64,000 nucleotides of DNA from a virus (IMGVR_UViG_3300035208_008116:9539-73538), one strand, 5' to 3'; counted from the first letter of the stretch, positions 16,968-52,798 are shown. Numbers and translations are program-made. Notes: generated by a model from the letters alone, not told the origin.

Positions 16968-17015
16968 ATTATACACCCATCATCATTACTTGGCAAGTAA
17001 CAACCTGTGGATAAC
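16968..17015 (-). promoter_or_regulatory. class-I promoter P1: TTATCCACA box, -35 TTGCCA, 17-bp spacer, extended -10 TGTATAAT
   Basis: rc of 17007-17015 = TTATCCACA; 16991-16996 = TTGCCA rc; 16968-16973 = TATAAT rc. Confidence 0.65.
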
Positions 17016-17231
17016 TTAATCCAGGTCAAAACTAATAATTCTCGCTGCTAACTGAGCTCGCTTTTTCCAATCTGTTTCAAAAGATAATTGACTCCTCAAA
17101 TCGTTCTTCTGGATCTCCCCATAAACGTTCTCGAGAGGAAGAGGCTTTTTCATCATAATTACGGCCTCATCAATCTTTTCTTGGGGGACATCGAGTTCCT
17201 CTAAAGTTTTTCGAATTAATTCTTCGTCCAT
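17016..17231 (-). CDS. hypothetical protein
   Basis: 71-aa ORF. Confidence 0.3.
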   Translation of the reverse strand: MDEELIRKTLEELDVPQEKIDEAVIMMKKPLPLENVYGEIQKNDLRSQLSFETDWKKRAQLAARIISFDLD

Positions 17232-17383
17232 GTTATTTATTTCTCATGAATTTGATAACAATACCGTAAGTCAAGAAATAATAAGTTCTTTCATATCTCC
17301 AGTCACAATATTCGGATGAACAATTGTGACTAAAGTAATAAGGAAATTTTTTTCCGACTCTTTTAAATATTTTTATTTCCATC

Positions 17384-18022
17384 TTATTTTATAGCTTCTA
17401 CCCAAATCATCTCACTTCTTTGGACAGTATCTTTTGGGTGCTTGGCGGTCTGAGATGGTGGATGTTGGGGGCTATACATCGGATAAATTACCATCTTGAT
17501 TTTATCGACCTTAAAACCAGCGTGAAAAAGAAGGCGTCCGAGGAAGTCAGGGTTAAAAGGAATATTGTGAAATTCTCCTTCATGGGCCTGATTGCCATAG
17601 ATTACCTCCATCCAATCTTTATAAACTTTCAAATTAAACTTATTTCCTTTGATATTGGTAGCCCAATATTCTGCAATCTGGTCAAAATTTGTAGTCATTA
17701 AACATAATTTTCCTCCAGGTTTAAGGACTCGGTACATCTCATGGAGGACTTTCTCAATGTTAAAGAAGCCCACGTGCTCGATAGCGTCAAAGGATTCAAT
17801 GTAGTCGGCGTAATTATCCTTAAAGGGGAGGGCGGACATGTCAGCTTTGACAAACTTTGACCCCTTATCGATAACTGCCTGAGCGTAAACTCCCTTTTTA
17901 GACTTTAGACCATCAAGGTCAACATACTTGTCGACGTTAATAAAATTTTTTACCAAATGCACGCCACACCCCAAATTTAATTTAATTTTTTTTTTCATTT
18001 TTTTTATTATTAATGTATTCAA
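17384..18022 (-). CDS. class I SAM-dependent methyltransferase
   Basis: LNLGCGVH, DAIEHV, VLKPGGKLCL motifs. Confidence 0.55.
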   Translation of the reverse strand: MNTLIIKKMKKKIKLNLGCGVHLVKNFINVDKYVDLDGLKSKKGVYAQAVIDKGSKFVKADMSALPFKDNYADYIESFDAIEHVGFFNIEKVLHEMYRVLKPGGKLCLMTTNFDQIAEYWATNIKGNKFNLKVYKDWMEVIYGNQAHEGEFHNIPFNPDFLGRLLFHAGFKVDKIKMVIYPMYSPQHPPSQTAKHPKDTVQRSEMIWVEAIK

Positions 18023-18407
18023 GGGTTACTTGTTTTAATCCTCCCCCTTTATCTATTAAGATTTGATGGACTAACTTATGACAAGATTGACAGAGGGGGA
18101 CAAGATCTTGAGGTCTTTCCCTCCCCACCTTTTTGTACGTTAGGTGGTGAAGTTGGATTCTTCTCTTTGCTCCACAGGCACTGCAAATTCTTTCCCTCTC
18201 CCGATAATAATCAATTTTTACTTTTTTCCAATGATCACTTTCCAGATATTTCTGATAAACTTTCTTACTTTTAAATACCTTAAGGCTGCCGCTTACTTTT
18301 CTAGGCTTGGCTCTTGGAACCTTTTTTTTGATCTCATTTAATCGACCTTCTTTCAAAAATCTTCTCCAAGTAAGCTTTGTTTTCTTTTTTGCTTTGTGCG
18401 TTGCCAT
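17982..18407 (-). CDS. HNH endonuclease
   Basis: CSACG...HHL...LCQSCHKLVH HNH motif. Confidence 0.6.
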   Translation of the reverse strand: MATHKAKKKTKLTWRRFLKEGRLNEIKKKVPRAKPRKVSGSLKVFKSKKVYQKYLESDHWKKVKIDYYRERERICSACGAKRRIQLHHLTYKKVGRERPQDLVPLCQSCHKLVHQILIDKGGGLKQVTLEYINNKKNEKKN

Positions 18408-18492
18408 GTTGGATATTTAAACCCTCGTGAGGCCTGCTTAGCCCTTCGTGGTGAGGTTTTTATCTCAGATTAGTCCTACCCTACCACTCCAC

Positions 18493-20355
18493 TTAAAAAT
18501 TAATGTCATCAGCGTTAATTTCATCACTTTTTAATTCCTCATGAATATAAGCAATTCCCTTATCGACCATTATCTGTTTAACCTCTGAGGCGACCTCTAA
18601 CGCGAGGTTTGCTCTCTTCTGAAGAAGTTCATCCCTAACAGCTTCTTCCTCTTTAACGACCTTTAGTTTCGCGGCGACCTCCTCATCGTCACTTAGATGT
18701 TCCCATGACTTAGCCTCCGTTAAGCCCCTGTTTGCTACTTCAACTTTTTTATTGGCAAAATCCACGCTTCTATCCAGCAGGATTTGTGCCTTGGTTGATT
18801 CTAGTAATAATCCATTATTCATTCTAACACTAATTTCTTTAGAAATTCCAGTCCTTCTATTCTTAAGAATTTTGATTTGACTGTCTTCTTTGTAAATGTC
18901 TTCTCCATCCTTAACTCCAGATAATTGACGATTAATCAACAAGACAGCGTCACTTTCTTGAGAAATGGCCGCAGAGTGACCAATATCGTCCATTGTCAGA
19001 TTATCCCCATTAGCCTTTCTTAAATGAACCATCAAGACAATGATAACTTCCTCCTTAATGGCAATCCTCTTAAGTTCCCGGCAAATAGCCCCAAGATAAA
19101 GGGAGTAGTTAGCCATCACACTTTTGTTATCCGTAGTCGGGACAAGAAATCCCAAATGGTCAATAAAGACAACCTTGGTCTTGTATTTTTCCTTAGCTTC
19201 GATAATTTTCTTTTCAACCCACTCAACTTTTCCAGAAACATTCCTAATTGGGGTATAAGTCATAAGAGTGTCATCAGCTCCCATTTTAGTGAACTTAGCC
19301 CAAAGTTCACGGAGTAGAACTTCATAAGATAACCAAAGGCTGGGAATCTTGTTCATAGCCATATTGAAGGAGAAGGTCTGCGCAAGTGTTGTTTTCCCAA
19401 ACCCAGACTTCCCAGTAACGACAATTAGGTCCCCCTCCTTAAATCCCCCACTCAGAGCTTCATCGATCAATTCGAAGCCACACGGGAAGTTGAGACTGAC
19501 ATCATTCTTAAGGCGGGCGACAACCTCGGACATAGGAAGGACAATGTCTTCCCCCTCCTCTTCTGGCTGAATACCACTTAAGGCTTTTAATTCCCTATTC
19601 GTGATAGAATTGAAAACCGCCCGGAGCTCTGTCTCATGAAGGGGTTCTGATAACCCCTTATTCCAGTAGACAACCATTGGCCAAACGGTTGCCCCCCAGT
19701 CTGGCTGCTTAAAAGATTTTAAGAGTTTCCCGACTAATTGGGCGGCAGCTTTATTCCTTTCTCCGACGGGAACTCCCTCAATAAGGGAACTCCAGTCAGT
19801 ATTTTTATACTTATGGTCAAACAGATCAAAGTTTTCAAGAGGAAAAGGTTGGAGTTCCTCAATCAAAACCCACTCATACCGGCGCCCTGATTTATGGAGG
19901 CTTGGGGCTAAGATGATGTAACCTCCATCTGATTTAATATCAACCAAAGGCTTTACTCCGATCCGACTCGCCAGTCCTTCTGGATATTGATAGAAAAGAT
20001 GCCATCCTCCAGACCCTGTTTTAGCGGTTAACGTTGGAGGAAGACCTTTCGTACTCCCTTGCTCGATGATAATATCTGGATTATTCGGATCCTTTTTGCA
20101 GTCGACATCTACCACTGAGATTCCTGAGATCTTCCCCGTGACGACGGCAATATTTGCCTCTGGCCATTGTGTCCACCAGGCGGTGACTTCTTGCACAGTA
20201 GGCAACCTCTTCTGAAACTCAGCCCAAGTTGGGATGAGTGGCGACTTCTTATCCTCACCTGCCCCTATTGGGATAACCGCCCATGATTTTGAGAGGTATT
20301 TTAGTGCCTCTTCGAGCATTATCGGGGTCTTTTCTTCCATTAATTCTTCGCGCAT
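18493..20355 (-). CDS. bifunctional primase-polymerase (N) / P-loop replicative helicase (C)
   Basis: N-terminal PrimPol-like region; C-terminal Walker A GKSGFGKTT and Walker B VVFIDHLG. Confidence 0.65.
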   Translation of the reverse strand: MREELMEEKTPIMLEEALKYLSKSWAVIPIGAGEDKKSPLIPTWAEFQKRLPTVQEVTAWWTQWPEANIAVVTGKISGISVVDVDCKKDPNNPDIIIEQGSTKGLPPTLTAKTGSGGWHLFYQYPEGLASRIGVKPLVDIKSDGGYIILAPSLHKSGRRYEWVLIEELQPFPLENFDLFDHKYKNTDWSSLIEGVPVGERNKAAAQLVGKLLKSFKQPDWGATVWPMVVYWNKGLSEPLHETELRAVFNSITNRELKALSGIQPEEEGEDIVLPMSEVVARLKNDVSLNFPCGFELIDEALSGGFKEGDLIVVTGKSGFGKTTLAQTFSFNMAMNKIPSLWLSYEVLLRELWAKFTKMGADDTLMTYTPIRNVSGKVEWVEKKIIEAKEKYKTKVVFIDHLGFLVPTTDNKSVMANYSLYLGAICRELKRIAIKEEVIIVLMVHLRKANGDNLTMDDIGHSAAISQESDAVLLINRQLSGVKDGEDIYKEDSQIKILKNRRTGISKEISVRMNNGLLLESTKAQILLDRSVDFANKKVEVANRGLTEAKSWEHLSDDEEVAAKLKVVKEEEAVRDELLQKRANLALEVASEVKQIMVDKGIAYIHEELKSDEINADDINF

Positions 20356-20378: not shown

Positions 20379-21323
20379 TTAATTTTTTAATACGAATTGT
20401 GCCTTTTTAAGGGCGGTCTCCAGAGTCCAGTTGTAATGGTTGGCGATAGCATCTTCTTCGCAGGCCTTAAAAACTCTCTTGAGTTCTGGGGGGCTATAGC
20501 CAATTAGGGCCATAGCAATGGGCATTAGCCTCCTGACAAGTAGCCGATATTCATCATAGGTTCTAGGGGCCAGATCTTTAGCCAAGAAGTAGTACCCTAA
20601 GACCTTACACTTAGCCTCTTTACTTTCCAGGAGGATCCTCAACCTTTCAGGCCAATTGTAATTAGTACGGAGTTTCTCGTTAATTTTACGGGTTACCTTT
20701 TTACTGACCTTAATGGGCTCTGTTGTGGCCGGGAGCTCCGCTCCCGTCTTTAACGAAGTTAAAGATAACCTTTTGTCTTCTGTGTTCTCCTTATTCCCTT
20801 TTGTATCCTTACGGTCCATATCTTTTACCCGGCTTTTACGATAGATTTTACCCGGCTCCGTGTCCATATCTTTTACCCGGGTATCCGCGTCCATATCTTT
20901 TACTCGGGGCATTAAATGGCCTAAAATATCCCTTTTTCTTCCAGCCCCCCTCTTGCTTTTGACCGGAATAAGTTCACTTTTTTCTTTCCATTCAGACTTA
21001 TCTGCGAGCAAATAAACGTTGGGTAACTGTCGTTTTGTGACTGGGTCTTTTTCCTTTATTATTTGGATGATTCCAGCCTCTTTTAGTGTGGCAATTGCCT
21101 TAATTATTGTAGGCTTAGTTAGCCCATGCTGTTCCGCCATTTTCTCAATTGACGGGAAGCATTCCTGGGTATGAAAATCTGAGTGGCGGCTAAGAGAATT
21201 ATAAACAGCAGTAGCATTAACACCACAAATACGAGCGTAACCATTGAGATACGCGTCATCGATTTTATATTGATCTTTTCTCCGCATATCGCGGACTTTT
21301 ATCACTCTTTCCTTTTTTTCCAT
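20379..21323 (-). CDS. HTH DNA-binding replication-initiator-like protein with in-frame RVKDMD repeats
   Basis: N-terminal HTH; location beside primase-helicase; 19-bp DNA repeats inside ORF. Confidence 0.4.
   Translation of the reverse strand: MEKKERVIKVRDMRRKDQYKIDDAYLNGYARICGVNATAVYNSLSRHSDFHTQECFPSIEKMAEQHGLTKPTIIKAIATLKEAGIIQIIKEKDPVTKRQLPNVYLLADKSEWKEKSELIPVKSKRGAGRKRDILGHLMPRVKDMDADTRVKDMDTEPGKIYRKSRVKDMDRKDTKGNKENTEDKRLSLTSLKTGAELPATTEPIKVSKKVTRKINEKLRTNYNWPERLRILLESKEAKCKVLGYYFLAKDLAPRTYDEYRLLVRRLMPIAMALIGYSPPELKRVFKACEEDAIANHYNWTLETALKKAQFVLKN
20808..20909. repeat. iteron-like direct repeats GTCCATATCTTTTAC(C/T)CGG x3 plus partial copy
   Basis: copies start at 20814, 20862, 20889; partial AGATTTTACCCGG at 20843. 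Confidence 0.7.
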
Positions 21324-21364: not shown

Positions 21365-21430
21365 AAAGGGGCTATGGAACTGCGCCGGTATTTGAAAACC
21401 GTTCCTATTTCTAGGAATTCCATAGCCCCT
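21365..21430. terminator. 13-bp perfect inverted repeat AGGGGCTATGGAA / TTCCATAGCCCCT (40-nt loop) between tandem minus genes
   Basis: seen directly; T-rich flank on minus strand. Confidence 0.35.
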
Positions 21431-21529
21431 TTGGGCAACTACTATTAAATTTTGATTCAAATTGGCGCGCATGGTCACAATAATACACTCAAAGTAACGA
21501 ACGGTAAACCTAGTAAAAAGTGGATAACT

Positions 21530-21841: not shown

Positions 21842-21857
21842 AGTTTATCATAAGTCC
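21842..21857 (-). promoter_or_regulatory. class-II motif copy (GGACTTATGaTAAACT on minus strand)
   Basis: one of five copies of GGACTTATG-N-TAnnnT. Confidence 0.4.
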
Positions 21858-26433: not shown

Positions 26434-26449
26434 ATAATACCATAAGTCC
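26434..26449 (-). promoter_or_regulatory. class-II motif copy (GGACTTATGgTATTAT on minus strand)
   Basis: faces tail-fibre genes. Confidence 0.4.
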
Positions 26450-26474: not shown

Positions 26475-26521
26475 TTATCCCCAACTAGGTACTTGCCAAG
26501 TAATGAGGATGGGAGTATAAT
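26475..26521 (+). promoter_or_regulatory. class-I promoter P2 (TTATCCCCA box; TTGCCA-17-TATAAT; leaderless)
   Basis: -35 26493-26498, -10 26516-26521, ATG 26528. Confidence 0.65.
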
Positions 26522-26527
26522 AGCCGT

Positions 26528-27085
26528 ATGACTAATAAAAATCATGTTTGGGTTATCACGGATACTCACTTTTTTCATAAAAAGATGGAGGAATACTGCG
26601 GAAGGCCGGAAGATTTTGGGGGGAGAATTCTGGTTGAGCTGGCAAGTTGTCTGAAGCGGGGGGATATCTTAATCCACTTAGGAGATATCAGTATGGGCCA
26701 TGACGAGGATGCTCATAATTCACTAAATTTGATTATCCCAGGAGGAGTAACGAGGATTCTGGTAAGGGGCAATCACGATAAAAAGAGTAATAAGTGGTAT
26801 CTCGAACAGGGGTGGGACTTTGTCTGCGAATCGTTTACTGATACCTATTTTGGAAAAAAAGTCTTATTTTCTCATACTCCAGCCCCAATCGGGGACTATG
26901 ATATCAATTTCCACGGGCACTTCCACAATAGTCCTAGTTCAAGATGGGAGCCTGAATATGTTAAGAACTTAAGTAAGGGGAAGCATAAATTGTTAGTTTT
27001 AGAGGATCATTATTATAAGCCATGGAATCTCCAAGAGATTCTTAAAAATATAACCACGAAATATGTCAAAATTAGAAAAAACTGA
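26528..27085 (+). CDS. calcineurin-like metallophosphoesterase
   Basis: ITDTHF, GDIS, GNHD, GHFH motifs. Confidence 0.65.
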   Translation: MTNKNHVWVITDTHFFHKKMEEYCGRPEDFGGRILVELASCLKRGDILIHLGDISMGHDEDAHNSLNLIIPGGVTRILVRGNHDKKSNKWYLEQGWDFVCESFTDTYFGKKVLFSHTPAPIGDYDINFHGHFHNSPSSRWEPEYVKNLSKGKHKLLVLEDHYYKPWNLQEILKNITTKYVKIRKN

Positions 27086-29092: not shown

Positions 29093-29139
29093 TTATCCAC
29101 AACTTTTTACTTGCCAAGTGAAAAGAATGGGTGTATAAT
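29093..29139 (+). promoter_or_regulatory. class-I promoter P3 (TTATCCACA; TTGCCA-17-TGTATAAT)
   Basis: -35 29111-29116, -10 29134-29139, ATG 29146. Confidence 0.65.
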
Positions 29140-29145
29140 AGGCGT

Positions 29146-29373
29146 ATGAATGAAATAATAGGAAGAGAGGTATCAAATGATCGTGGGTCGATAATGGTTA
29201 GTTGGAACAAACCCTTGTTCCGGAAACTATCTAAGGCCTATATCAAGGCGACAGAAGCTGGGGAAGAGTCATTCACTATGGATGACTTGGCTTTTGATAC
29301 AAAATATGCCGGGTACCTCCTTCTCTATTTGGCAGATAAATTAGGAGTTAAAAATAAAAAAAATGGCAAATAA
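29146..29373 (+). CDS. hypothetical protein (leaderless; ORF-track GTG start at 29131 is inside the -10 box)
   Basis: first ATG 6 nt after TATAAT. Confidence 0.4.
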   Translation: MNEIIGREVSNDRGSIMVSWNKPLFRKLSKAYIKATEAGEESFTMDDLAFDTKYAGYLLLYLADKLGVKNKKNGK

Positions 29374-29581
29374 ATTGACGTCCTTAGGGGAGCTCGCCCT
29401 TGAGCTAAAAATTAATAAGAGTCAACTATTATATTATCATAAGTTGGGGCTTATTAATCCGATTGAGACAGTTGGGAGGATGAATCTTTTTGATCGTCAA
29501 GAGACAATTGGAGTGATTAAAAAAATCCAAAAGTTGCAATCAGCTTCAAAAAGTTTGAGCGAGATAATGGATCTTCTTTAG
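29363..29581 (+). CDS. MerR-family HTH regulator (short)
   Basis: LGELA...LLYYHKLGLINP N-terminal MerR HTH signature. Confidence 0.5.
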   Translation: MANKLTSLGELALELKINKSQLLYYHKLGLINPIETVGRMNLFDRQETIGVIKKIQKLQSASKSLSEIMDLL

Positions 29582-29590: not shown

Positions 29591-31339
29591 ATGAAAAAAA
29601 TATTAGCGCAAAATTTGGGTTATCATCATTTTGCTTTTTACTTCGACTACGAAGAGACAATCGTTGAATTCTGTCGGTGGATAAAAGCAACATATGGATA
29701 TCAAAACTTCACCTTCTACGGCTTTAATGGAACTAAAGCCTGGATTTTTAGTGATCCTCAAATTTTAGCAGCGATTAAAAATAATTATCCTGATACTGAG
29801 TTAGACTTAGTGTCTGACGATGCTTATCGAAAAGCCCTCGTTAAGATGGGGGAAGACGAGAGGATTGAAACTAGGGCTATAGAATTGAAATCGGCGACTG
29901 ATTCTGATATTAAAATACCTAATCTGAAGTTACCTCTTTACCCTTATCAAAAGGTGGGGGTAGAATTTTTTATTAATAACCAAGGAAGGGCTATCTTGGC
30001 TGATCAGATGGGGACGGGCAAGACTGCGACGTCCTTAGCTTATATCGTTTATAAAGGAAGTCGAAGATCTTTAGTTATTTGTCCCGCCTCAGTTAAGTTT
30101 GCATGGAAAGATGAAGTCGAGAAATGGACGACTTTAAGGTGCCGTGTGGTTCAGAGCAGTGATGACAAAGAGGTCTTTAAGGAGAGGGCAGATATTTTTA
30201 TTATAAATTATGACATCGTCCGAAAATTTAAAGATTCTATCCTTAGTCGGCAGTGGGAGGTTTTAATCTGCGATGAGTTTCACATGATTAAGAATAGTCA
30301 GGCTCAAAGGACAAAATCAGTAAAGGAAATTGCCAAGGGTATTGAATCTTGTCTCCTCTTGAGCGGAACCCCACTACTTAATAAGCCTGTTGAATTATTC
30401 AATGGCCTTAATTTGATGGATCCTCGAACGTGGAATAATTACAGTACTTATGTTTATCGTTATTGTGGGGCAAAAAGAACGAGGTATGGTTTAGAAGTAA
30501 AGGGGGCCACAAATATTGAAGAGCTCCAGCAACGGATCCAAAAATACTTTTTAAGAAGAACAAAAGAGCAGGTCTTAAAAGATCTCCCCCCGAAGAGATT
30601 CATTAGTATTCCAGTGGAACTTGAACCATCCATCGCTAAAGAGTATTCCATTCTAGAGGCTTCGTTAAGGCAATATCTTCTTCAGGTTAAAAAGAAGAAA
30701 GGGGTAGATGTTGAGAAGACCTTAGGGAGTGAGCACTTAGTTAAGCTTGGACACATGAGGCAGTTAACGACGAGGGGAAAACTAGCAACAGCTGAGGAAT
30801 TGATCAAAAACATTGTGGATAGCGGAGAGAAAGTGGTGGTGTTCTCAAACTATCATGAGCCTTTAGTGGAGTTAAATAGGAAGTTTTTTTCGAGCTCTGT
30901 TCTCCTTACTGGTCAAACAAAAGTAGAAGATCGAAGAGAGATGGTGGAAGAATTTCAGCAGAATAAGAATATAAGAATTTTCTTCGGTGGAATAAAAAGT
31001 GCGGGGGTTGGTATTACTCTAACATCGGGAACGGTAGTAGTGTTTATAGATTATAGTTGGGTACCAGCAGACCACAGCCAAGCGATCGATCGCATCCATC
31101 GCATCGGTCAAACAGCTGAGGCCGTGACAATCTATCAACTCTTTGCTCGTCATACAATAGATGAAATGATGAAGAAACTTCTTGAGAAAAAACAAGTTAT
31201 TTTTGATCGATTAATTGAGGGGAGAGACGGAGAAGCTCTTGAAGGGGATGTAGTGAGTGATTTGCTAGCAATGGTAAAAGCTGAAGAATTTGAATTTACT
31301 GTTGATAGTAAAGGGCGAAAAAAGTTATCCACAGTATGA
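29591..31339 (+). CDS. SNF2-family DEAD/H helicase
   Basis: LYPYQKVGVEF, DQMGTGKT, LICDEFHMIKN, SGTPLLNKP, C-terminal helicase motifs. Confidence 0.8.
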   Translation: MKKILAQNLGYHHFAFYFDYEETIVEFCRWIKATYGYQNFTFYGFNGTKAWIFSDPQILAAIKNNYPDTELDLVSDDAYRKALVKMGEDERIETRAIELKSATDSDIKIPNLKLPLYPYQKVGVEFFINNQGRAILADQMGTGKTATSLAYIVYKGSRRSLVICPASVKFAWKDEVEKWTTLRCRVVQSSDDKEVFKERADIFIINYDIVRKFKDSILSRQWEVLICDEFHMIKNSQAQRTKSVKEIAKGIESCLLLSGTPLLNKPVELFNGLNLMDPRTWNNYSTYVYRYCGAKRTRYGLEVKGATNIEELQQRIQKYFLRRTKEQVLKDLPPKRFISIPVELEPSIAKEYSILEASLRQYLLQVKKKKGVDVEKTLGSEHLVKLGHMRQLTTRGKLATAEELIKNIVDSGEKVVVFSNYHEPLVELNRKFFSSSVLLTGQTKVEDRREMVEEFQQNKNIRIFFGGIKSAGVGITLTSGTVVVFIDYSWVPADHSQAIDRIHRIGQTAEAVTIYQLFARHTIDEMMKKLLEKKQVIFDRLIEGRDGEALEGDVVSDLLAMVKAEEFEFTVDSKGRKKLSTV

Positions 31340-31370
31340 ACTTGCCAAGTAGATAAAATGGGAGTATAAT
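31325..31370 (+). promoter_or_regulatory. class-I promoter P4 overlapping helicase stop codon
   Basis: TTATCCACA 31325-31333, TTGCCA 31342-31347, TATAAT 31365-31370. Confidence 0.65.
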
Positions 31371-31426
31371 AGAAGAAGATAAAAAGAGGTTAAGGTCGAA
31401 CCCTCTTGGAGAATAAAGATATTAGT

Positions 31427-31585
31427 TATGGAAAAATGCGATAAGTGTAAGAAGAAGGTTAATCTTTACCGTTTTACTTGGAGGTACAATGATAAAGAAA
31501 GAACCTACTTAAAGTCAAAGAGATTCATTATCCATACAGGGTATAAATATCTTTGCAAGAAGTGTTTACTAGAAATTATTAATTA
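31427..31585 (+). CDS. small zinc-ribbon protein (52 aa; CDKC...CKKC)
   Basis: first ORF downstream of P4. Confidence 0.35.
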
Positions 31586-31603: not shown

Positions 31604-32413
31604 ATGGACAATCGTAGTGCAAAAACGTTTTTATGGACAGTCGGGGTGATTATCGCCATAATTTTAGTTATCATTCTACTTCCTTTTAAAATTATTGGAG
31701 CAGGTGAGAGAGGGGTAGTCCTTCGGTTTGGAGCGGTCAATAGGATCATGCCTCCGGGGTTGAGTTTTAAACTCCCTTTGATGGAGAGAGTTGCTGTCAT
31801 TGACATAAAAACTCAAAAGGAACAAGTGGAAGCAAATGCCGCCTCAAAAGATCTTCAGAGTGTTAGTGCGGTTATTGCTGTTAACTATAATGTAATGCCA
31901 GATAAGGTTGATTCCTTGTGGAAGAATATTGGCTCTGATTATAAAGTTAGAGTTATTGATCCTGCCATCCAAGAAGCCGTCAAGGCCGCGACAGCAAACT
32001 ATACTGCCGAAGAGTTGATTACTAAAAGGCCCCTAGTTAGTGAGGGGATAAAAACGAATCTTTCCGAAAGACTCCGACCTGATTTCATTATGGTCACAGA
32101 GCTGTCAATCGTGAATTTTGATTTTTCTGAGTCCTTTAATTCTGCTATTGAGAGTAAAGTGACAGCTGAGCAAAATGCGTTAGGGGCTAAGAATAAATTG
32201 GCCCAAGTTAAGTTTGAGGCTGAACAACGCATTGCTACCGCTCAAGCAGAGGCTGAGGCTATTAAGTTAATGTCAGAGGCGGCGAACAATGAGAAGTATG
32301 TGTCTTTAAAGAAGGTCGAAGTTCAGTTAGAGATGGCTAAGAAGTGGAATGGGGCGTTGCCTGTTAATCTTTACGGATCTTCTCCTATTCCATTCATTGA
32401 CATTGCTAAGTAA
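31604..32413 (+). CDS. SPFH/band-7 (stomatin/prohibitin-like) membrane protein
   Basis: N-terminal TM helix then GERGVVLRFGAV SPFH core. Confidence 0.7.
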   Translation: MDNRSAKTFLWTVGVIIAIILVIILLPFKIIGAGERGVVLRFGAVNRIMPPGLSFKLPLMERVAVIDIKTQKEQVEANAASKDLQSVSAVIAVNYNVMPDKVDSLWKNIGSDYKVRVIDPAIQEAVKAATANYTAEELITKRPLVSEGIKTNLSERLRPDFIMVTELSIVNFDFSESFNSAIESKVTAEQNALGAKNKLAQVKFEAEQRIATAQAEAEAIKLMSEAANNEKYVSLKKVEVQLEMAKKWNGALPVNLYGSSPIPFIDIAK

Positions 32414-36543: not shown

Positions 36544-36559
36544 ATACTACCATAAGTCC
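36544..36559 (-). promoter_or_regulatory. class-II motif copy (GGACTTATGgTAGTAT on minus strand)
   Basis: orientation conflicts with flanking + genes. Confidence 0.3.
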
Positions 36560-38545: not shown

Positions 38546-39835
38546 TTACCATTCATCCCCATATCTTCCATATCCATAGGGCTCATGGTTGTCAGGATGC
38601 CCATAAGGGGCTTGATATGGGTCTTGTTCTGAAGAAGCTAGCTTTTCGGCAAATTCATTATCTAGTTCTTCATTTTCTGTTGGCTTTTTATCTTTTTCTA
38701 TTTCATTAACTTCTTTTGCATATTCGTATTCATTTTGGAAGAAGCAGGCTTTTTTCATCAATTCTTCAATTTGGTGGGTGATAGCAGGAATGTCTTCTGT
38801 GTCTGTAGGGTATACATCAAGATAATTAAAGAAGTCATCAACAATTCCTTCCATTTCTTCTTTGAGTTCTCCTAATTTTGTTAGGAATTCATCATCGATG
38901 GTTGGCTCGTCTTCTGGGGGAATATCAATTTTTTCGGGGTCTTTTTCTTCAGTCTTTATCAATGTTCCTTGACCTTGGAATCCAATTGGCGTTTTTTCGG
39001 TGGTAACGTATGTTCTTTTGACTGGGTCCCAAACATGGAGTGTATTTGAGGTTGATTCGTTTCCTGAAAAATATGAAGTTGCTAGAGTTTGCCTTTCTTG
39101 GAGTAGTCCTAATGGGACATTTGTTAACTTCATTTCTCCCTTAGGTTCGAAGGAATATAATCTTTTTTCTTTGATATTATCTCCTTCTCCCTCTGATGAT
39201 AGTTTAATGAAGCCTCTGCTTTTTGCCATATGGAGTGGGCTAGAATTCCTTGCAAAATATACTCGATGGATTTTTTGAGTTGTCTTATTTATCTGGAGAG
39301 CAATGAAAGCGGCTGATCCTTGGACTTTTCCTTCTTTGTCTCTGTTTCCTTCAAGATAGAGAGCTAATTCAATGGCTAATGTTTCAGAGTCATTGTATTT
39401 TTCAAAGATTGTCTTTGGATTATAAGTGCTTTCAATACTGTATTTTGTTCGGTAATTGAGTCCCATCTTCTCATGACGTTCTTTTAATTCATCATCATTA
39501 CTGATTATTCCGTTATGGATGACTAAATAATCGAACTTTAATGATTTATCACTAACAAAAAGTGGGTGGGTTTGATCTAGGTAATTATCAGTGGAAGTAG
39601 GCATTCTATGGTGAGCGATCATCATTTGAACTGGTTTCATTTCGATATCCATCAAGAATTTTGCGGGTTCGCAAGCTCTTTTAACTTCATAGGTTAGGCT
39701 TGGATTGATGCGAACGACACCAAATCCTTTGCTGCCTCTTTCGTGTTGTTCTTCGTATCGATTGATGATCCAATCATTGACAGGTTTTTTGTTCTTACCT
39801 TTTTTGGTATCGAACATGGCTATTAATCCACACAT
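38546..39835 (-). CDS. class-II (Ntn) glutamine amidotransferase domain protein with acidic C-terminal tail
   Basis: N-terminal MCG (Cys2 nucleophile), HNGIISN motif. Confidence 0.55.
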   Translation of the reverse strand: MCGLIAMFDTKKGKNKKPVNDWIINRYEEQHERGSKGFGVVRINPSLTYEVKRACEPAKFLMDIEMKPVQMMIAHHRMPTSTDNYLDQTHPLFVSDKSLKFDYLVIHNGIISNDDELKERHEKMGLNYRTKYSIESTYNPKTIFEKYNDSETLAIELALYLEGNRDKEGKVQGSAAFIALQINKTTQKIHRVYFARNSSPLHMAKSRGFIKLSSEGEGDNIKEKRLYSFEPKGEMKLTNVPLGLLQERQTLATSYFSGNESTSNTLHVWDPVKRTYVTTEKTPIGFQGQGTLIKTEEKDPEKIDIPPEDEPTIDDEFLTKLGELKEEMEGIVDDFFNYLDVYPTDTEDIPAITHQIEELMKKACFFQNEYEYAKEVNEIEKDKKPTENEELDNEFAEKLASSEQDPYQAPYGHPDNHEPYGYGRYGDEW

Positions 39836-41532
39836 TAGAATTGTACGTTATTGTCTGATAATTGGTTTTCGCTATGGATTATTCGCAATGTCTCCTCAGC
39901 ATCACTATAGTCTGCTTCATACATTGCTTCTCCTGGGCCAAAAGGATTTTCTCCGAGGATTCTTTCCCCTGATTCTATTCTGGCTTGATCCATTTCTTGA
40001 GCGACTTGCCTTGTTGCTTCAGCAGCTCTTCGGGCAGGATTGGAATCTTTATCGATGTGAAGATTTAATTCTTTTTGGTGAAGAACTTCTGTAATTTCTC
40101 CTGGAGTTCTTTTTCCGTCAATTTCGATATATTCAGGAAGATTTTTATGACTAATTTCAACTGGCTTTAAACCTTTTTCAATACTGTGGACTAGTTTTAA
40201 GAATGGTTTAAAGTTTAATTCTTGTCGATCTTCGTAAGGAATTCCAATCATAACAATAGGGATTTGCGTATCTTTGGCTAATTCTCCCGTGCGTAGATTA
40301 ATCATATTGTTATAATTTTTGAAGGCGGAACGATAGCGAGATTGCATCTTAATCAGAATTTCTTTCATGCTTTCAAGATCGTCTTGAGTTTTTAGTCTTT
40401 CTTGGCCAGCAAGGAAGTGAAGATTAGCATCAACAGCCATTAAGCTCTTTATTCCTTTTCGTAATCCAAAGAAGAAATATTGGTGATTAAGTTTCCAATT
40501 AAAGGCAACGATTCGTTTCGATAATTCTTTGGCGAATGTTTCGACATTGCTATCTCCATTGATAGTAAAGTTCACAAATCCGGAGAGTTCTTCAATATCT
40601 AGTTTCTTATTGATTGGAACAATTTTCTTGGCGAGAACTTTTTGAGCATTTGGTAAATTGGATGGCTTTTGGAGTTTCCAGCCTTGCATGATGTTGTAAC
40701 TAACAGCTTTTTTATCTGCGAGGACTCTTTCTGGATTCAAGATATAATTAATTTCATTCTTGTACATAGGATAGAACTCGAATTTCTTAATATATTTCTT
40801 GATTTGTTCAATGATTCCTTTTGACAAGGCTGGATAATCAGCGAGTAGAAGTTCTTGAAGAGCTGATCCTTGTTTTTCTGTCTTAAATATCAGATCATTA
40901 TATTTTGCGAATGCACGAGGATGATTAATGATCTCATTGTAGACAGTGCCTAAAAAGGCCATTGTTGCCATTGCAATTTTTGGGGTTGTTAGCCATTCGG
41001 CGCTGGGGGTACGAAATTCGTAAACAGCTATTCCGTTTTTACTATCTGCTCTGGAATCATTGAGTTTTCCATAGCCTGATTTTAATCGGACGTTTAGATT
41101 CATTTTGTTGTCTCCACTCATAAGTGGAAGATAAAATGAGGCTAATCGTTTATGGATCAGATTAACTTTTCCGTTGTTAGTGGAATTGCTTGGAAGTGAG
41201 AAGTGAATATGGCCTCCGACTGATCCGTGAAGACTTAATGTTGATAGATCGAAGAGGGAAAGTTGTTTGCTGACAGCTTTGAAGATTTTTCCTATATTAT
41301 CGACTAGTTCGGCAGGATTTTTGGCATATTTAGGACGGATTTCTCCCGTTTCATTGCAGCCATCCCAACCAAATTCTCCTCCTGGGGTTTCGAATCCCAT
41401 GCTTCTTGATGGCAATCCTTCGAGGAGGCTAGAAAAAACTTCTTCGGCACTAACACGATTATCTTGTAGTAAGAGATTGAATTCAGGATCAGCTCCGATT
41501 GTGAATCCAAAGTCTGGGGTTTTTTTTGGCAT
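39835..41532 (-). CDS. glutamine-synthetase/GCS2-fold carboxylate-amine ligase (amidoligase-like)
   Basis: TIGADPEF, ETGEIRP, GGHIHFS motifs in order; start overlaps amidotransferase stop. Confidence 0.4.
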   Translation of the reverse strand: MPKKTPDFGFTIGADPEFNLLLQDNRVSAEEVFSSLLEGLPSRSMGFETPGGEFGWDGCNETGEIRPKYAKNPAELVDNIGKIFKAVSKQLSLFDLSTLSLHGSVGGHIHFSLPSNSTNNGKVNLIHKRLASFYLPLMSGDNKMNLNVRLKSGYGKLNDSRADSKNGIAVYEFRTPSAEWLTTPKIAMATMAFLGTVYNEIINHPRAFAKYNDLIFKTEKQGSALQELLLADYPALSKGIIEQIKKYIKKFEFYPMYKNEINYILNPERVLADKKAVSYNIMQGWKLQKPSNLPNAQKVLAKKIVPINKKLDIEELSGFVNFTINGDSNVETFAKELSKRIVAFNWKLNHQYFFFGLRKGIKSLMAVDANLHFLAGQERLKTQDDLESMKEILIKMQSRYRSAFKNYNNMINLRTGELAKDTQIPIVMIGIPYEDRQELNFKPFLKLVHSIEKGLKPVEISHKNLPEYIEIDGKRTPGEITEVLHQKELNLHIDKDSNPARRAAEATRQVAQEMDQARIESGERILGENPFGPGEAMYEADYSDAEETLRIIHSENQLSDNNVQF

Positions 41533-47730: not shown

Positions 47731-47777
47731 TTATCCACAGCTGGATACTTGCCAAGCTGATAGGATGGGTGTATAAT
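47731..47777 (+). promoter_or_regulatory. class-I promoter P5
   Basis: TTATCCACA 47731-47739, TTGCCA 47749-47754, TGTATAAT ending 47777. Confidence 0.65.
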
Positions 47778-47786
47778 AGGAGCATT

Positions 47787-48401
47787 ATGAATATGGAGAA
47801 AGAAGATTTAATTAGGGTGTTAGTTGAGGAGGGGAGGGAGGTTCTTGAGAAAATTGATAACCTCCAGCGGTGTGTCGATATTATTAAAGTGGCCCTTAAT
47901 GATGAGGGAGATGAAGCTATCTCTATCCTCTCTGACCATCTGGATATGAGGAAGGGGGAATATTATGACATCTCTCAAAAGGAGAATCTTCTCAAAGAAG
48001 AGATTCTTAGGGAGGAGGAAGAAGTTAAGAGGAAGATTGAGGAAGAAAAAAGGAGAGAAGAGACTATGGTTAAGCCCTTAGAGGTACCCTCTTATTATGA
48101 GGTTTATGAGAAAGGGAGTACATATAAGGCGTTTATTGATAGATCTCTTTCTTATTGTGCTGGGCAGAAATGTAAAAAAAGGATATATTGGGTCAAAAAT
48201 CCAGAGGGGAAAGCTAAGCCAGTAAGGTTTATTACATGGAAAGAACTAGAAACCCTTGTCCTAATTCCCCCTATAAAGGAAGCCTATATCAGTGAGAGGA
48301 AGGCTTTGGGTGCTCCATGGATCTGTCTTGAGCATCATCATGATTGTGTCGATCGTTATAAAAATTTTTCCGCTGAAAAGGCTTTAAGATTAAAATCATG
48401 A
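47787..48401 (+). CDS. hypothetical coiled-coil/Cys-rich protein (start at first ATG, not GTG 47769)
   Basis: ORF-track start lies in -10 box. Confidence 0.4.
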   Translation: MNMEKEDLIRVLVEEGREVLEKIDNLQRCVDIIKVALNDEGDEAISILSDHLDMRKGEYYDISQKENLLKEEILREEEEVKRKIEEEKRREETMVKPLEVPSYYEVYEKGSTYKAFIDRSLSYCAGQKCKKRIYWVKNPEGKAKPVRFITWKELETLVLIPPIKEAYISERKALGAPWICLEHHHDCVDRYKNFSAEKALRLKS

Positions 48402-49012
48402 ACACCAAACCAAACACTTACTCGCGATTTAATCCTTTGACTCACTCCTACGAGATGATTCATAGGGAGGAACTCCTTAAGCGGAACCTTAAGATTATTA
48501 AACTTAGGGGGGAAGGCTTGACTTATGAGGAGATTGGCAAGCGATTTGGTATAAGCCGAGAGAGGGTGAGGCAAGTAGGGAAGCTTCTTAAACCAGAGTT
48601 TTTTACCAACCAGAGGCAAAAATCCCCGAGGAAGATTGTAAAATGCCATTGGTGTGGCAAACCGGTAGATATTAGGCTCTGGGATTGGCAAAGAGACAGG
48701 GTGACCGGCAAGAAAAGGCATTATTATTGCAATCAGAAGTGCTCATGGGCAGATAAAAGGATCTATCAGAGTAAGGAGGAGCAGCAGGCGGAGATGATGA
48801 GGCGTTATAAGATTCGCTATCGCCAAGACCCTAAAGTAAGGCAAGCCCGGGCGGAAGCTTCAGTTAAATGGATAAAGAAGCTTAAATTAGATCCTGTTAA
48901 GTGGGAAGCTTATAGGGAGAAGCAAAGGCTCTGTTCTAGAAAATGGCATCGTATTAATAAATTAAGAAAGAAAAAAAATGAGCAAAATCATATTACGAGG
49001 GGACGCCGCTAG
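48398..49012 (+). CDS. sigma-70 region-4-like HTH protein with basic zinc-ribbon tail
   Basis: LTYEEIGKRFGISRERVRQV matches sigma r4.2 HTH; CHWCGK...CNQKC. Confidence 0.45.
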   Translation: MNTKPNTYSRFNPLTHSYEMIHREELLKRNLKIIKLRGEGLTYEEIGKRFGISRERVRQVGKLLKPEFFTNQRQKSPRKIVKCHWCGKPVDIRLWDWQRDRVTGKKRHYYCNQKCSWADKRIYQSKEEQQAEMMRRYKIRYRQDPKVRQARAEASVKWIKKLKLDPVKWEAYREKQRLCSRKWHRINKLRKKKNEQNHITRGRR

Positions 49013-50582
49013 ATTCGCCCTGAAGAAGGGTATTGATGAAGTGGCGGACTCAGTGAAGATCACTTTGGGTCCAAGGGGGAGGAATGTCGTTCTCCAACGT
49101 TATAATGTGCCCTTGATTACGAATGATGGGGTTTCGATTGCTAGAGAGATTGAGGTTAAAGACCCTATCGAGCAATTGGGGGTGGATATTGTAAAGGAGG
49201 TAGCCAATAAAGCGAATGATGTGGCCGGAGATGGCACCACGACAGCGATTATACTCACTCAGGCTATCTCAGAGATTGGTTTAGGGCGAACGGCCTTCTT
49301 TTGCGATAAGATGGCCGTCAGGAGGGGCTTAGAGGCTTCTAGCGAGCTTGTAGTATCGAGGCTGAAGGAAATGGCCCGCCCAGTTAAGACTTTAGAGGAA
49401 GCGGTTCAGGTTGCTTCCATTAGCGCGGAGAGTGAGGAGTTAGGCAAGGTTATTGGAGAAGTGGTGATGGAAGTAGGCAAAGATGGGGCCGTTACCGTGG
49501 ATGAATCTCCTGCTTCTGGCATTTTTTCAGAGATAGTGACAGGGATGAAGATTGATAAAGGCTATCTCTCCCACTATATGGTAACCGATAATGAGAAAAT
49601 GGTGGTTGAATATCCTAACGTTGCGGTCTTGGTTACCGACAAGAGGTTGAGTTCAGTTAAAGACATCTTCCCCTTCTTGGATAAAGTTATTAGCGGGGGC
49701 CAAAAAGAACTTCTAATTATTGCTGAGGATGTTGAAGGGGAGGCCTTGGCGGGGATGATTGTTAACAAGGTTAGGGGGATTATGAATGTTGTCGCCATCA
49801 AAGCGCCGGGTTTTGGAGAACGAAAGAAGGAGATTATGGAGGATATTGCTATTGCGGTGGGGGGCAAAGTTGTTAGTAAGTCTGTCGGGTTGGATCTCGC
49901 CACGGTTGAGCCCAATGAAGTCTTAGGACAAATTAGTCGATTAGTCGTGACAAAAGATCAGACGGTTATGATTCGGGGGAGCCTTAGTGACGATGGGGCC
50001 GTCCAAGAAAGGATTGCCTCCATTAAGAAGGACATGGAGTCGGTTGAATCCAAGCATGATAAGGAACAAATGAAATCTCGGATTGCCATGCTCAATGGGG
50101 TTGTCGCCGTGATTAGGGTAGGGGCAAACACTGAAGCCGAGGCCAAATATCTAAAACTGAAGGTTGAGGATGCTGTTAATGCTACTCAAGCAGCAATCGA
50201 CGAGGGTATTGTTACTGGGGGAGGGAGTGCTTTAGTTAAGGTCTGGGAATGGTTAAGGGTTAATCGTCCGGGAGATTTAAACTCGGTTGAGTTTCAGTCA
50301 GGGGTAGATATCCTCTTGGAGTCTCTACTTGTTCCCTTTAAACAAATTGTGGAGAATGCTGGAAGGGATGACTTTGCGGTTTTGCTCTTAGATCTTCGTA
50401 AAGGTGACCAAGGTTATGATGCCAAGAACGATATTGTCGTTGAAGATATGTTTAAAGCGGGGATTATTGACCCAGTAAAGGTAACTCGAACAGCCTTAGA
50501 ACGCGCAGTCAGTGCGGCTGCCATATTATTAACCACGGAAGTCGCCGTGGCAGAAGTTAAAAAAGATGATGGCCATGTCTAA
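48978..50582 (+). CDS. groEL: GroEL-like chaperonin (Cpn60)
   Basis: LGPRGRNVVL, VAGDGTTTA, equatorial/apical domain pattern over 534 aa. Confidence 0.85.
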   Translation: MSKIILRGDAARFALKKGIDEVADSVKITLGPRGRNVVLQRYNVPLITNDGVSIAREIEVKDPIEQLGVDIVKEVANKANDVAGDGTTTAIILTQAISEIGLGRTAFFCDKMAVRRGLEASSELVVSRLKEMARPVKTLEEAVQVASISAESEELGKVIGEVVMEVGKDGAVTVDESPASGIFSEIVTGMKIDKGYLSHYMVTDNEKMVVEYPNVAVLVTDKRLSSVKDIFPFLDKVISGGQKELLIIAEDVEGEALAGMIVNKVRGIMNVVAIKAPGFGERKKEIMEDIAIAVGGKVVSKSVGLDLATVEPNEVLGQISRLVVTKDQTVMIRGSLSDDGAVQERIASIKKDMESVESKHDKEQMKSRIAMLNGVVAVIRVGANTEAEAKYLKLKVEDAVNATQAAIDEGIVTGGGSALVKVWEWLRVNRPGDLNSVEFQSGVDILLESLLVPFKQIVENAGRDDFAVLLLDLRKGDQGYDAKNDIVVEDMFKAGIIDPVKVTRTALERAVSAAAILLTTEVAVAEVKKDDGHV

Positions 50583-51287: not shown

Positions 51288-51743
51288 ATGAACCGTTCTG
51301 ATCCTTTAAATATTAGCGAGGCGAAGAGACTTTTAAGCCTCAACCAAAAAGGAGTCTCTAAAGAGGAGATGATTAGACTTTTGAAACGCTCTCGTCCTTT
51401 CCTCGATAAATATTTTAAAGAGCACAAGATTACTTATCTCTATCGCCCAGGAAAAAGATTCCGGGATGTAGAGATCCAGCAAATTTTGACTCTTTATGAT
51501 AAAGGGGATACCTCTATCTCGGCCATCAGTCGAAGGTTTGGAGTTTGTCATGAGACGATTAAGAGGATCGTTGAAGGGCATAATGTCGAGAAAGATGCCC
51601 CAGAGAAGGTCATTAAAGTGAAATATATTGAGGAAGATGGGGAGAAGGTTTGTGCGGGGCTAAGCTATAGTGATTATCTCCGAAGGGCTTACGGAAAAGA
51701 CTATAAAAAATATCTATCAAATTCTAAGAATTACGCCGGTTAA
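51288..51743 (+). CDS. HTH DNA-binding protein
   Basis: ISAISRRFGVCHETIKRIV HTH-like segment. Confidence 0.3.
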   Translation: MNRSDPLNISEAKRLLSLNQKGVSKEEMIRLLKRSRPFLDKYFKEHKITYLYRPGKRFRDVEIQQILTLYDKGDTSISAISRRFGVCHETIKRIVEGHNVEKDAPEKVIKVKYIEEDGEKVCAGLSYSDYLRRAYGKDYKKYLSNSKNYAG

Positions 51744-51889: not shown

Positions 51890-52060
51890 ATGGACACATG
51901 CTGGCAGTGTGGTAAGAAGCCAAAGTTTGTTGTCCCCGTCATCATCAGGGGCAAGGAATACCTATTTTGTGTTTCGTGTTGTGAACGAACAGCCAAGGAC
52001 TATGGAGGGTCGAACGATGACGGAATTGAACCAGCGAGCGTGCGACCAGTTGATGCCTGA
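51890..52060 (+). CDS. small zinc-ribbon protein MDTCWQCGKK...CVSCC (56 aa) with GGAGG SD
   Basis: in GC-richer island; SD-like GGAGG 9 nt upstream. Confidence 0.3.
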   Translation: MDTCWQCGKKPKFVVPVIIRGKEYLFCVSCCERTAKDYGGSNDDGIEPASVRPVDA

Positions 52061-52333
52061 ATACTGGCAATACTGGAAAGGGATGTGTCTGTCGAGCTGT
52101 AACAAGGTCAGTCAATGTTCCAAGTTTTCGGAAGGAGCTAACCTTGATGCTTTCAAAAAGAAACAGGCTCACGACGCTACTCATCGCGTGGGAAGGCCGA
52201 TGCCGAACCCCGACTAGCGTGTCCATCAAGGAAGTGACCGAGGCCAAGGACGATTTCAGAAAGGAGTTTGGCTGGGCGAAACTAACCGAGTTAATCAACG
52301 AAGTGACAATGGCCTGTGCTAAGGAGACGAGCG

Positions 52334-52459
52334 ATGGCTACTTGTCCAAGGTGCGGAAAAGAAGTGGATACCTATCAGACTGCGTGCGACTGCGGTCAGT
52401 TGTGGCCAGGAAGAACACCAGACGGCAACACCGTTAAACCTCCAAAGCTCCGCCAGTAG
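52334..52459 (+). CDS. small zinc-ribbon protein MATCPRCGKE...CDCG (41 aa) with AAGGAG SD
   Basis: canonical SD 7 nt upstream, unusual for this genome. Confidence 0.3.
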   Translation: MATCPRCGKEVDTYQTACDCGQLWPGRTPDGNTVKPPKLRQ

Positions 52460-52487
52460 CTCCTTAAAAGGAAAACTGGCAACATCT

Positions 52488-52570
52488 GCGTTGTTGGTGG
52501 AGTGGTCATCACGGACGACTGTAAATCGTCTGCCATTGCGGCAAGGGGAGTTCGATTCTCTCACAACGCA
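52488..52570 (+). tRNA. tRNA-Tyr (anticodon GTA), long variable arm
   Basis: manual fold: perfect 7-bp acceptor GCGTTGT/ACAACGC, D-arm, anticodon loop CUGUAAA, 15-nt variable arm, T-arm GGGAG-TTCGATT-CTCTC. Confidence 0.6.
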
Positions 52571-52751
52571 CACTCTCTTTGGAGATACTAGTGTCCTCGC
52601 CAGTCACTAGGCCGGAAGGTGGGTATATCCCAATGGCGTAATTATGACAAATAAATTAGAAAGAAAAATTCAGTTTGGTAAATATACCAAGAGGGATTAT
52701 AGAGAAGTGAGGAGATTATTAAAAAATAAGTGGAAGGAAGAGGAGTTAGAG

Positions 52752-52798
52752 TTATCCACAGTTCCCTACTTGCCAAGTAAGAAAGATGGGAGTATAAT
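52752..52798 (+). promoter_or_regulatory. class-I promoter P6 with no ORF downstream for ~600 bp
   Basis: TTATCCACA 52752-52760, TTGCCA 52770-52775, TATAAT 52793-52798. Confidence 0.65.

Follow-up and report, generated by a model that had tools for sequence, protein, structure and literature searches.

A DnaA-box-like element at a fixed, helically phased distance upstream of consensus sigma70-type promoters in uncultured phages

The 64,000-nt stretch IMGVR_UViG_3300035208_008116:9539-73538, called the window here and analysed over its whole length (all coordinates follow its numbering), is DNA of an uncultured phage of roughly 100 kb, and it carries a family of consensus sigma70-type promoters in which a 9-mer, TTATCCACA, lies a short and nearly constant distance upstream of the -35 hexamer. 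On comparative evidence this 9-mer, or box, is a selected element and not a by-product of promoter duplication, because it is kept in relatives and in unrelated contigs while its surroundings diverge; as judged from promoter counts in a viral collection, it is also specific in orientation and phased with the DNA helix. One orientation and one helix face classically point to a protein that is bound to the DNA and interacts with RNA polymerase, and since the box appears to be selected and to depend on position and orientation, a trans-acting protein contacting RNA polymerase is the best reading of it, one that we hold with good confidence. The host replication initiator DnaA would be the most likely binder, given that the DnaA boxes of highest affinity have the very sequence of this element, and we put the chances that DnaA is the protein in question at about even.

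Promoter modules of the window

An earlier note on this DNA had described six copies of a module of about 47 bp, and all six are present where it placed them (Table 1); the joint pattern TTATCCMCA-N7-ACTTGCCAAG is matched six times in the window against 0.02 matches expected, and ATGGGNGTATAATAG seven times against 0.46. The -35 block TACTTGCCAAGT is likewise over-represented, and TTATCCACA with at most one mismatch occurs 33 times against 17.5 occurrences expected. When the six copies are aligned the invariant blocks are (G)TTATCC(A/C)CA, ACTTGCCAAG and ATGGG(T/A)GTATAATAG, and the -35 hexamer TTGCCA, a spacer of exactly 17 bp and a perfect TATAAT are common to all of them, as had been claimed. 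A seventh, degenerate copy has TTGACA in place of TTGCCA, and sigma70-type hexamers stand 17 bp apart in all seven. Measured against the DnaA-box pattern TTATNCACA, the 9-mer is exactly TTATCCACA in five of the seven copies and TTATCCCCA in the other two. Two details of the earlier description need amendment. The supposedly fixed distance between box and -35 is indeed near-constant, but GTTATCCACAG, the box with its flanking bases, is placed 8-9 bp upstream of the -35 in the window, not 8-10 bp; and the -10 is not TG-extended, for GGG(T/A)G abuts TATAAT directly, with T/A-G at -14/-13 and not TG at -15/-14.

Every copy lies upstream of co-directional genes. The genes of the window form four strand blocks, each module is oriented with its own block, and copies 2 and 5, in divergent regions, head the two plus-strand blocks; block orientation and phage gene content together support the claim that these sigma70-type promoters are a co-oriented family and belong to a phage. 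The modules are very probably real promoters, to judge from their sequence; they are presumably active in transcription, and gene content together with a host-type promoter points to early use. The host primary (sigma70-type) RNA polymerase would read them and drive blocks of small, mostly uncharacterised genes along with accessory genes.

Within the window the 47 bp are nearly identical among the copies over their whole length, spacer positions included, as would be expected if the modules were recent duplicates of one promoter whose 9-mers are alike only through youth. That explanation is refuted across genomes, where spacer and flanks differ while box, orientation and distance are kept, and we regard it as extremely improbable. 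A site for integration host factor was also considered as a reading of the box and fits one copy only.

Conservation of the box in related phages

Relatives' DNA was taken around 88 homologues of the SNF2 helicase encoded in the window, loci being chosen through the protein and not through the motif; this helicase has more than 1,500 metagenome homologues, many of them on contigs of about 100 kb. The exact box occurs 40 times in 856 kb of these helicase-linked loci, against 10 occurrences expected. Together with the window the loci hold 120 consensus promoters (TTG[AC]C[AT]-N16-17-TATA[AC]T), and only 7 are found in 613 kb around distant helicase homologues. A box lies no more than 30 nt upstream of 27 of the 120, the other 93 being without one, and in a recount of 119 promoters the gap between box and -35 was 9 bp in 16 cases, 8 bp in four, 10 bp in two, 11 bp in one and 1 bp in two. 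Among these 119 no inverted box stands at gaps 8-11, and a single one is found within 60 nt upstream, at gap 27.

Besides the window about ten distinct phages are box-positive (L012-14, L016, L075, L076/77, L078, L100, L102, L116/117 and L132), and at least 15 relatives have two or more strong promoters without a box. Each positive phage has its own lineage-specific spacer and flanks around a constant (A)GTTATCCACA(G), and in most of them (L012, L076, L078, L100, L102, L116/117 and L016) a boxed promoter directly follows the helicase gene in syntenic position. A search of related phage genomes for the module had been proposed earlier, and its outcome is that the box is kept where -35 flanks and spacers differ. 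As a separate matter, most promoters of the phage family, boxed or not, hold their -35 within the palindrome ACTTG(A/C)CAAGT (for example at window 26490-26501), which is extended to ATCCACTTGACAAGTGGAT at L079 4689 and may be a dimeric operator overlapping the -35.

Orientation and helical phase in a viral collection

Patterns run against IMG/VR all used one core promoter, TTGACA-N16-17-TATAMT, preceded by different elements at different gaps. At gap 8-10 the forward box TTATCCACA is found at at least 120 loci, a scrambled 9-mer of equal composition at 6, and the inverted box at 20, 13 of them at gap 8. At gap 13-15 the forward box is found at 7 loci and at gap 18-20 at 43, an enrichment at about 9 and about 19, and not at about 14, of the kind that marks the face-of-helix dependence of class-I activators. 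Among the matches listed, the forward set at gap 8-10 comprises 115 distinct module sequences with unrelated spacers and a guanine-plus-cytosine (GC) content of 27-51%, divided over gaps of 8 (33), 9 (52) and 10 bp (30); the 5' flank AG precedes 75 of these 115 boxes and 25 of 37 at gap 18-20. Selection on the upstream 9-mer is supported twice, by its retention in diverged relatives and by one orientation and one helical phase in at least 120 viral contigs. Some carrier contigs have two or three head-to-tail boxes with a period of about 12-13 bp, which fit a monomer able to form arrays, and others have convergent pairs. A first viral scan, in which the box was joined to ACTTGCCAAG, gave five matches, about the chance level, of which only L003 and L005 look real.

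No close isolated relatives of the carriers were found. The protein family most often met in them, a Toprim-DnaB primase-helicase in which inteins are frequent, is present at 38 of 120 loci among the matches listed. Genes for the primase-helicase, for terminase-like proteins and for the SNF2 helicase often contain inteins (Hint/LAGLIDADG/HNH) in these phages, with examples in L215, L171 and L225/L230 and in helicase homologues P0045, P0059, P0068 and P0074.

Nature of the proposed box-binding protein

The 9-mer had been called identical to the classical DnaA box consensus, and the match is exact and extends beyond it: the 11-mer GTTATCCACAG, flanks included, is that of oriC R1 (as reverse complement) and R4, which in the RefSeq record of E. 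coli K-12 oriC lie within CCTGTGGATAACAAGG and AGAGTTATCCACAGTAG, respectively. The element, centred near -49 and in other phages also one helical turn further out near -59, would be the site of a monomeric, sequence-specific DNA-binding protein acting on the polymerase from one helix face, most likely by recruiting or stabilising it in the manner of a class-I activator. An asymmetric, monomer-type site, head-to-tail arrays, the diversity of the carriers and the lack of a common phage-encoded candidate all favour DnaA. There is also precedent in the literature. DnaA on high-affinity boxes is reported to activate nrdAB, where it stabilises RNA polymerase, and to stimulate lambda pR through the polymerase beta subunit (PMC8203912). 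Conserved DnaA boxes, TTATCCCCA among them, are present in T5-like phages (bioRxiv 10.1101/866236).

From these features we infer that a protein would bind the box, that DnaA may be this protein and that its effect would be activation. The phage would thereby couple its transcription, probably that of the early phase, to a protein that no host cell lacks. High-affinity boxes are described as binding DnaA-ATP and DnaA-ADP alike, and because both nucleotide forms are bound a single box would report the presence of DnaA and not the state of the cell cycle. The fuller proposal, that phages of a host clade without Shine-Dalgarno use have made DnaA a general transcription activator by way of one high-affinity box on a fixed face at -49/-59, is tentative, and we rate it somewhat short of an even chance.

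One alternative is that host RNA polymerase itself reads the 9-mer, either as an UP-like element contacted by the C-terminal domain of the alpha subunit (alpha-CTD) or through an extra module of the host sigma or alpha. The element spans -53 to -45, in the UP-element region, it is tied to consensus promoters in one orientation and it is clade-restricted, all of which would suit such a role. It is not A/T-rich as an UP element should be, however, having three C within TTATCCACA; it is also placed a full helical turn farther from the promoter and, in some phages, directly against the -35; within the phage family the majority of consensus promoters (the 93 of 120 noted above) do without it; and it occurs in tandem arrays. 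Direct reading by the polymerase is on these grounds improbable.

It is also conceivable that the boxes serve replication or DnaA titration, through transcription-activated origins, recruitment of DnaA and DnaB or the soaking up of DnaA, and that their link to promoters is secondary. DnaA boxes are primarily replication elements, and the phage initiator gene has a weak module upstream of it. In lambda, DnaA, transcription from pR and activation of ori are coupled (PMC8203912), and a non-transcriptional role has been proposed for the conserved DnaA-box clusters of T5 (10.1101/866236). Neither function needs the strict gap of 8-10 or 18-20 bp and the orientation seen across hundreds of promoters, however, and in the window the boxes are single, dispersed over 43 kb and unclustered, in a phage with its own initiator and PrimPol-helicase. 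We consider this role distinctly improbable.

Several observations weigh against DnaA as an activator at these promoters. Among modules whose gap is 8-11 bp one variant alone recurs, TTATCCCCA, which has C for A at position 7; the consensus TT(A/T)TNCACA excludes it, and the same paper lists it within the T5 box cluster (10.1101/866236). The core promoters are near consensus in -35, -10 and spacer, where class-I activation goes with a suboptimal core, so that the need for an activator is not obvious. In L079, L097 and L125 the box abuts the -35 (TTATCCAC/TTGACA), in L132 it is one base away, and in others it is inverted nearby or lies within the spacer (L012 position 43; L075); a box against the -35 or in the spacer is more typical of repression. 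Finally, a universal DnaA explanation predicts no host restriction, and the carriers are nonetheless restricted. With Shine-Dalgarno use measured as the fraction of open reading frames (ORFs) of at least 100 aa that have an upstream GGAG, GAGG or AGGA, the median for carriers at gap 8-10 is 0.07, and 77 of 93 loci among the matches listed fall below 0.2. The corresponding medians are 0.14 for carriers at gap 18-20 and 0.0 for the window's phage family, and in the control sets 0.39 for the scrambled box and 0.57 for gap 13-15; three carriers among the matches listed, L184 among them, do use Shine-Dalgarno sequences. Since the carriers are nearly all without them, the device appears to belong to phages of hosts that make essentially no use of Shine-Dalgarno sequences and have consensus sigma70 promoters, and the restriction suggests that it is specific to phages of one host clade. 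A clade-specific factor would account for such a restriction no less well than DnaA.

The box might accordingly be bound by another protein, a transcription factor of the host clade or a small phage-encoded binder, with identity to the DnaA box arising through convergence or mimicry. Near-confinement of the architecture to phages of hosts without Shine-Dalgarno use and the recurrence of TTATCCCCA, atypical for DnaA, speak for such a protein, and the window offers candidates in a sigma70-region-4-like helix-turn-helix (HTH) protein (48398-49012), an HTH_7 protein (51288-51743), a two-finger C2H2 protein (32440-32994) and a MerR-like protein (29363-29581). Chance is unlikely to produce an exact 11/11 match to R1 and R4, however, and the carriers are very diverse, both in GC content and in that even their commonest protein family is present at under a third of the loci listed. 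As to a phage-encoded binder, the C2H2 protein was found nowhere but in the window and in L012, the nearest relative, the MerR-like gene is equally frequent in box-positive and box-negative relatives, and a phage-encoded factor would not yet be present if the modules are the first promoters used after infection. No phage gene co-occurring with the box was found in the relatives' DNA, in a presence/absence test limited by locus size, and the window proteins that were scanned include none with a DnaA-C-like domain. A binder other than DnaA seems to us unlikely, with a chance that is far from negligible.

The Shine-Dalgarno-using carrier L184 (IMG/VR UViG 2524614727_000001, 5500-5760) is temperate and encodes a cI-like repressor, an integrase and RecT. 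One consensus promoter of this phage is surrounded by three exact TTATCCACA and one TTATCAACA, the four sites being at -49, immediately behind the -10 and at two places downstream. DnaA control of a phage promoter might be easier to test in L184.

Hosts of the carriers

Calibration of the Shine-Dalgarno measure gave 1/62 for Chryseobacterium (Bacteroidota) phage MA9V-3, 9/35 for Anabaena phage A-4L and 12/67 for Rhodothermus phage RM378. The three were also examined as possible cultured counterparts, and all of them lack the module; MA9V-3 and A-4L have hardly any consensus promoters, and RM378 has three weaker matches. In the window a Shine-Dalgarno-like motif precedes 18 of 100 genes, and the regions upstream of start codons are A/T-rich. 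A scan of genome collections found close relatives only in contigs of metagenome-assembled genomes, one of them in an Ignavibacteriales bin, which is the only taxonomic hint; homologues of the Band-7 protein returned only DPANN bin names, which are unreliable. Strong Shine-Dalgarno sequences at a Saccharibacteria-binned locus make a host among the candidate phyla radiation or Saccharibacteria unlikely, and an archaeal host was rejected on account of the 6 nt between -10 and ATG, which is not the distance of a TATA box. Nor do the modules fit TAnnTTTG, the promoter motif of Bacteroidetes type.

Start codons and predicted leaderless transcripts

If +1 is taken as usual at 7 nt after the -10, three modules are predicted to start transcription on the A of the start codon and to yield leaderless mRNAs: the ATG follows the -10 by 6 nt in copies 1, 2 and 3 (ATG at 16961(-), 26528 and 29146). 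In copy 5 the ATG follows by 9 nt, for a leader of 2-3 nt; copies 4 and 6 have no ATG nearby, and at copy 4 the leader is about 55 nt. The number of copies with an ATG 6-9 nt after the -10 is therefore four of six and not five, as had been counted, and copies 4, 6 and 7 lack a leaderless layout. The broader claim that several genes are placed for leaderless transcription holds, three of them lying exactly at the predicted +1. For the metallophosphatase gene the start must be 26528, because its Pfam domain begins at residue 7 of the ORF 26528-27085 and there is no in-frame start upstream. The same layout of -10, 6 nt and ATG is kept in relatives L012 and L016, and in L012 the ortholog of the copy 3 module shows it at position 9518.

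Lambda cI expressed from pRM, a leaderless phage mRNA, is the nearest likeness, in that the A of AUG is the predicted first base of the transcript (PMC10491246); unlike that case, several genes per genome would be leaderless here, from strong promoters and in an arrangement kept in relatives, and internal genes are also without Shine-Dalgarno sequences. The start-codon artefact pointed out in the earlier note, in which genes are begun at a GTG inside GTGTATAAT, was reproduced in a mechanical ORF list (GTG starts at 16976, 29131 and 47769). The motif corrects such systematic errors, for example the MYNR... N-termini, and is a practical marker of promoters and of true, leaderless gene starts in these metagenomic phages.

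Relation to known systems

Transcriptional regulation by DnaA is known from lambda pR and from a small number of host promoters. E. coli nrdAB and lambda pR/ori-lambda resemble the modules in having a high-affinity DnaA box beside a sigma70 promoter (PMC8203912), and differ in that here a single consensus box stands at a fixed -49/-59 and is repeated over many promoters and phages, in that the core promoters are near consensus, and in that DnaA is here a putative binder. The T5-like injection-stop region also has conserved consensus DnaA boxes, TTATCCCCA included (bioRxiv 10.1101/866236); unlike the arrangement here, T5 has eight paired boxes in an untranslated repeat region for which a role in DNA injection is proposed, and no promoter positioning (10.1101/866236). 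With class-I promoters the modules share an upstream site that is tied to one helix face, as judged here from its enrichment at certain gaps. Class-I activator-dependent promoters have, for example, CRP at -61.5 or -71.5, whereas the site here is asymmetric (monomer-like) and closer, at -49, and the core is not defective. The T4 MotA box, which replaces the -35 and is read by a phage protein, is likewise a short asymmetric motif marking one temporal class of phage promoters, but here the -35 is intact and the motif recurs in phages whose proteins show little or no detectable similarity to one another.

The searchable literature yielded no account in which DnaA boxes are a regular upstream component of phage promoters. 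DnaA-linked promoters of activator type are known, and what does not appear in the literature is a fixed, helically phased box repeated within genomes and across at least 120 contigs. If the reading put forward here is true, it would amount to a widespread, so far undescribed coupling of phage gene expression to the host replication machinery, and binding by DnaA would give phages a general route to read or exploit the replication state of the host. If DnaA is not the binder, an abundant DNA-binding protein with DnaA-box specificity would be present in a poorly studied host clade.

Genome context and other features

The proteins encoded in the window include a large terminase, SbcC/SbcD, a RecA-like recombinase, an O/DnaD-like initiator, a PrimPol-DnaB helicase and the SNF2 helicase, along with GroEL/Cpn10, HU and Ro60, and there are four tRNAs. 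Megablast against isolated phages gave no match to the window, and its terminase, helicase, PrimPol and RecA have only distant matches among isolates.

Table 1. Promoter modules, second-class promoters and RNA features in the window, with Ro60-linked motifs in other loci
Feature	Coordinates (strand)	Elements	Downstream genes or context
Copy 1	16966..17015 (-)	box TTATCCACA 17006-17014 (G at 17015); -35 TTGCCA 16991-16996; -10 TATAAT 16968-16973	ATG 16959-16961, 76-aa ORF ending 16731; then Fic-domain gene 16158-16727
Copy 2	26475..26523 (+)	box TTATCCCCA 26475-26483; -35 26493-26498; -10 26516-26521	divergent intergenic region; predicted leaderless ATG 26528, metallophosphatase gene 26528-27085
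Copy 3	29093..29141 (+)	box TTATCCACA 29093-29101; -35 29111-29116; -10 29134-29139	predicted leaderless ATG 29146 (75-aa ORF); then MerR-like HTH gene 29363-29581, SNF2 helicase 29591-31339
Copy 4	31325..31372 (+)	box TTATCCACA 31325-31333; -35 31342-31347; -10 31365-31370	overlaps last codons of helicase gene; ~55-nt leader, ORF at 31428, Band-7 gene 31604-32413
Copy 5	47731..47779 (+)	box TTATCCACA 47731-47739; -35 47749-47754; -10 47772-47777	heads plus-strand block; ATG 47787; then sigma70-region-4-like HTH protein 48398-49012, GroEL 48978-50582
Copy 6	52752..52800 (+)	box TTATCCACA 52752-52760; -35 52770-52775; -10 52793-52798	no ORF directly after
Copy 7 (degenerate)	9779..9827 (-)	box TTATCCCCA 9819-9827; N9; -35 TTGACA 9804-9809; N17; -10 TATAAT 9781-9786	22-nt leader to gene 9249-9758; SbcD/SbcC genes further downstream
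Candidate eighth module (weak, read from the sequence only)	21480..21527 (-)	TTATCCACT-N10-TTTACC-N17-TATTAT	upstream of replication-initiator gene 20379-21323
Structured non-coding sequence	52805..53413 (+)	~600 nt (607 nt); Y-RNA-like modules ~52825-52932 and ~53268-53385	behind copy 6, upstream of Ro60/TROVE gene 53414-54820
Ro60-linked RNA motif in other loci	L076 6390-6600 and 8100-8400; L081 3040-3800; L087 17640-18600; L137 15090-15300; L163; L208; L239		
Second promoter class	26434..26449 (-); 21842-21857 (-); 36544-36559 (-); 56911-56926 (+); 57680-57695 (+)	GGACTTATGGTAnnAT, TGn-extended -10, no -35	

The region behind copy 6, which this promoter would transcribe, folds far better than shuffled sequences (z = -5.3) and has, inside long terminal stems, two copies of GGUGGCAAYGAAUSAGAUACUUCAA; the Ro60 gene that follows was identified by a Pfam match. 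A motif family of the form GGGYAGUGA, 6-9 nt, RGWUACUUC, with UUUUCUCCC on its 3' side, flanks phage Ro60 one to four times in nine related or unrelated loci, in L076 downstream of a boxed promoter as in the window, and several of its copies have a tRNA-like T arm and were scored as partial tRNAs. The motif resembles GGUAGUGAGUUAUCUC, a segment conserved in vertebrate Y RNA, and also the YrlA RNAs of bacteria, which are tRNA-like. The Ro60-flanking RNAs are probably Y-RNA/YrlA-like; Rfam does not recognise them, and for the region behind copy 6 it returned no Y-RNA family at threshold. Relatives also carry RtcB and, in one case, a transfer-messenger RNA.

The second promoter class is matched six times in the window against 1.24 expected. 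Its member at 26434(-) stands back-to-back with copy 2, with the box between them, and a back-to-back pair with a boxed promoter is also found in L012; the class precedes a 964-aa gene at 57737 and the minus-strand block starting at 26189, and the member at 36544(-) is antisense to plus-strand genes. The class has the form GGACTTATG(G/T/A)TAnnAT and is conserved in relatives (L012 571 and 3517, L078 3862, L093 9125 and L117 2130).

Between the weak eighth module and the initiator gene, at 21375-21450(-), lies a long near-perfect inverted repeat, CAAAGGGGCTATGGAA, about 40 nt, TTCCATAGCCCCTTTG, which could be a terminator or attenuator or an origin-associated structure beside the initiator gene. 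A run of small genes at 13290-15470(-), each with TTAACCCCTAACAA(A/G)TAA immediately before its start codon, has the look of one small-gene family that expanded in tandem and has a common upstream signal. The adjacent phiEco32-like COOH-NH2 ligase and glutamine-amidotransferase-like genes at 38546-41532(-) are kept in L012-L014 and may form a nucleotide or DNA modification module. The C2H2 protein at 32440-32994(+) and its counterpart at L012 12727-13320 have two classical zinc fingers (CxxC-x12-HxxxxH), which are unusual for a phage.

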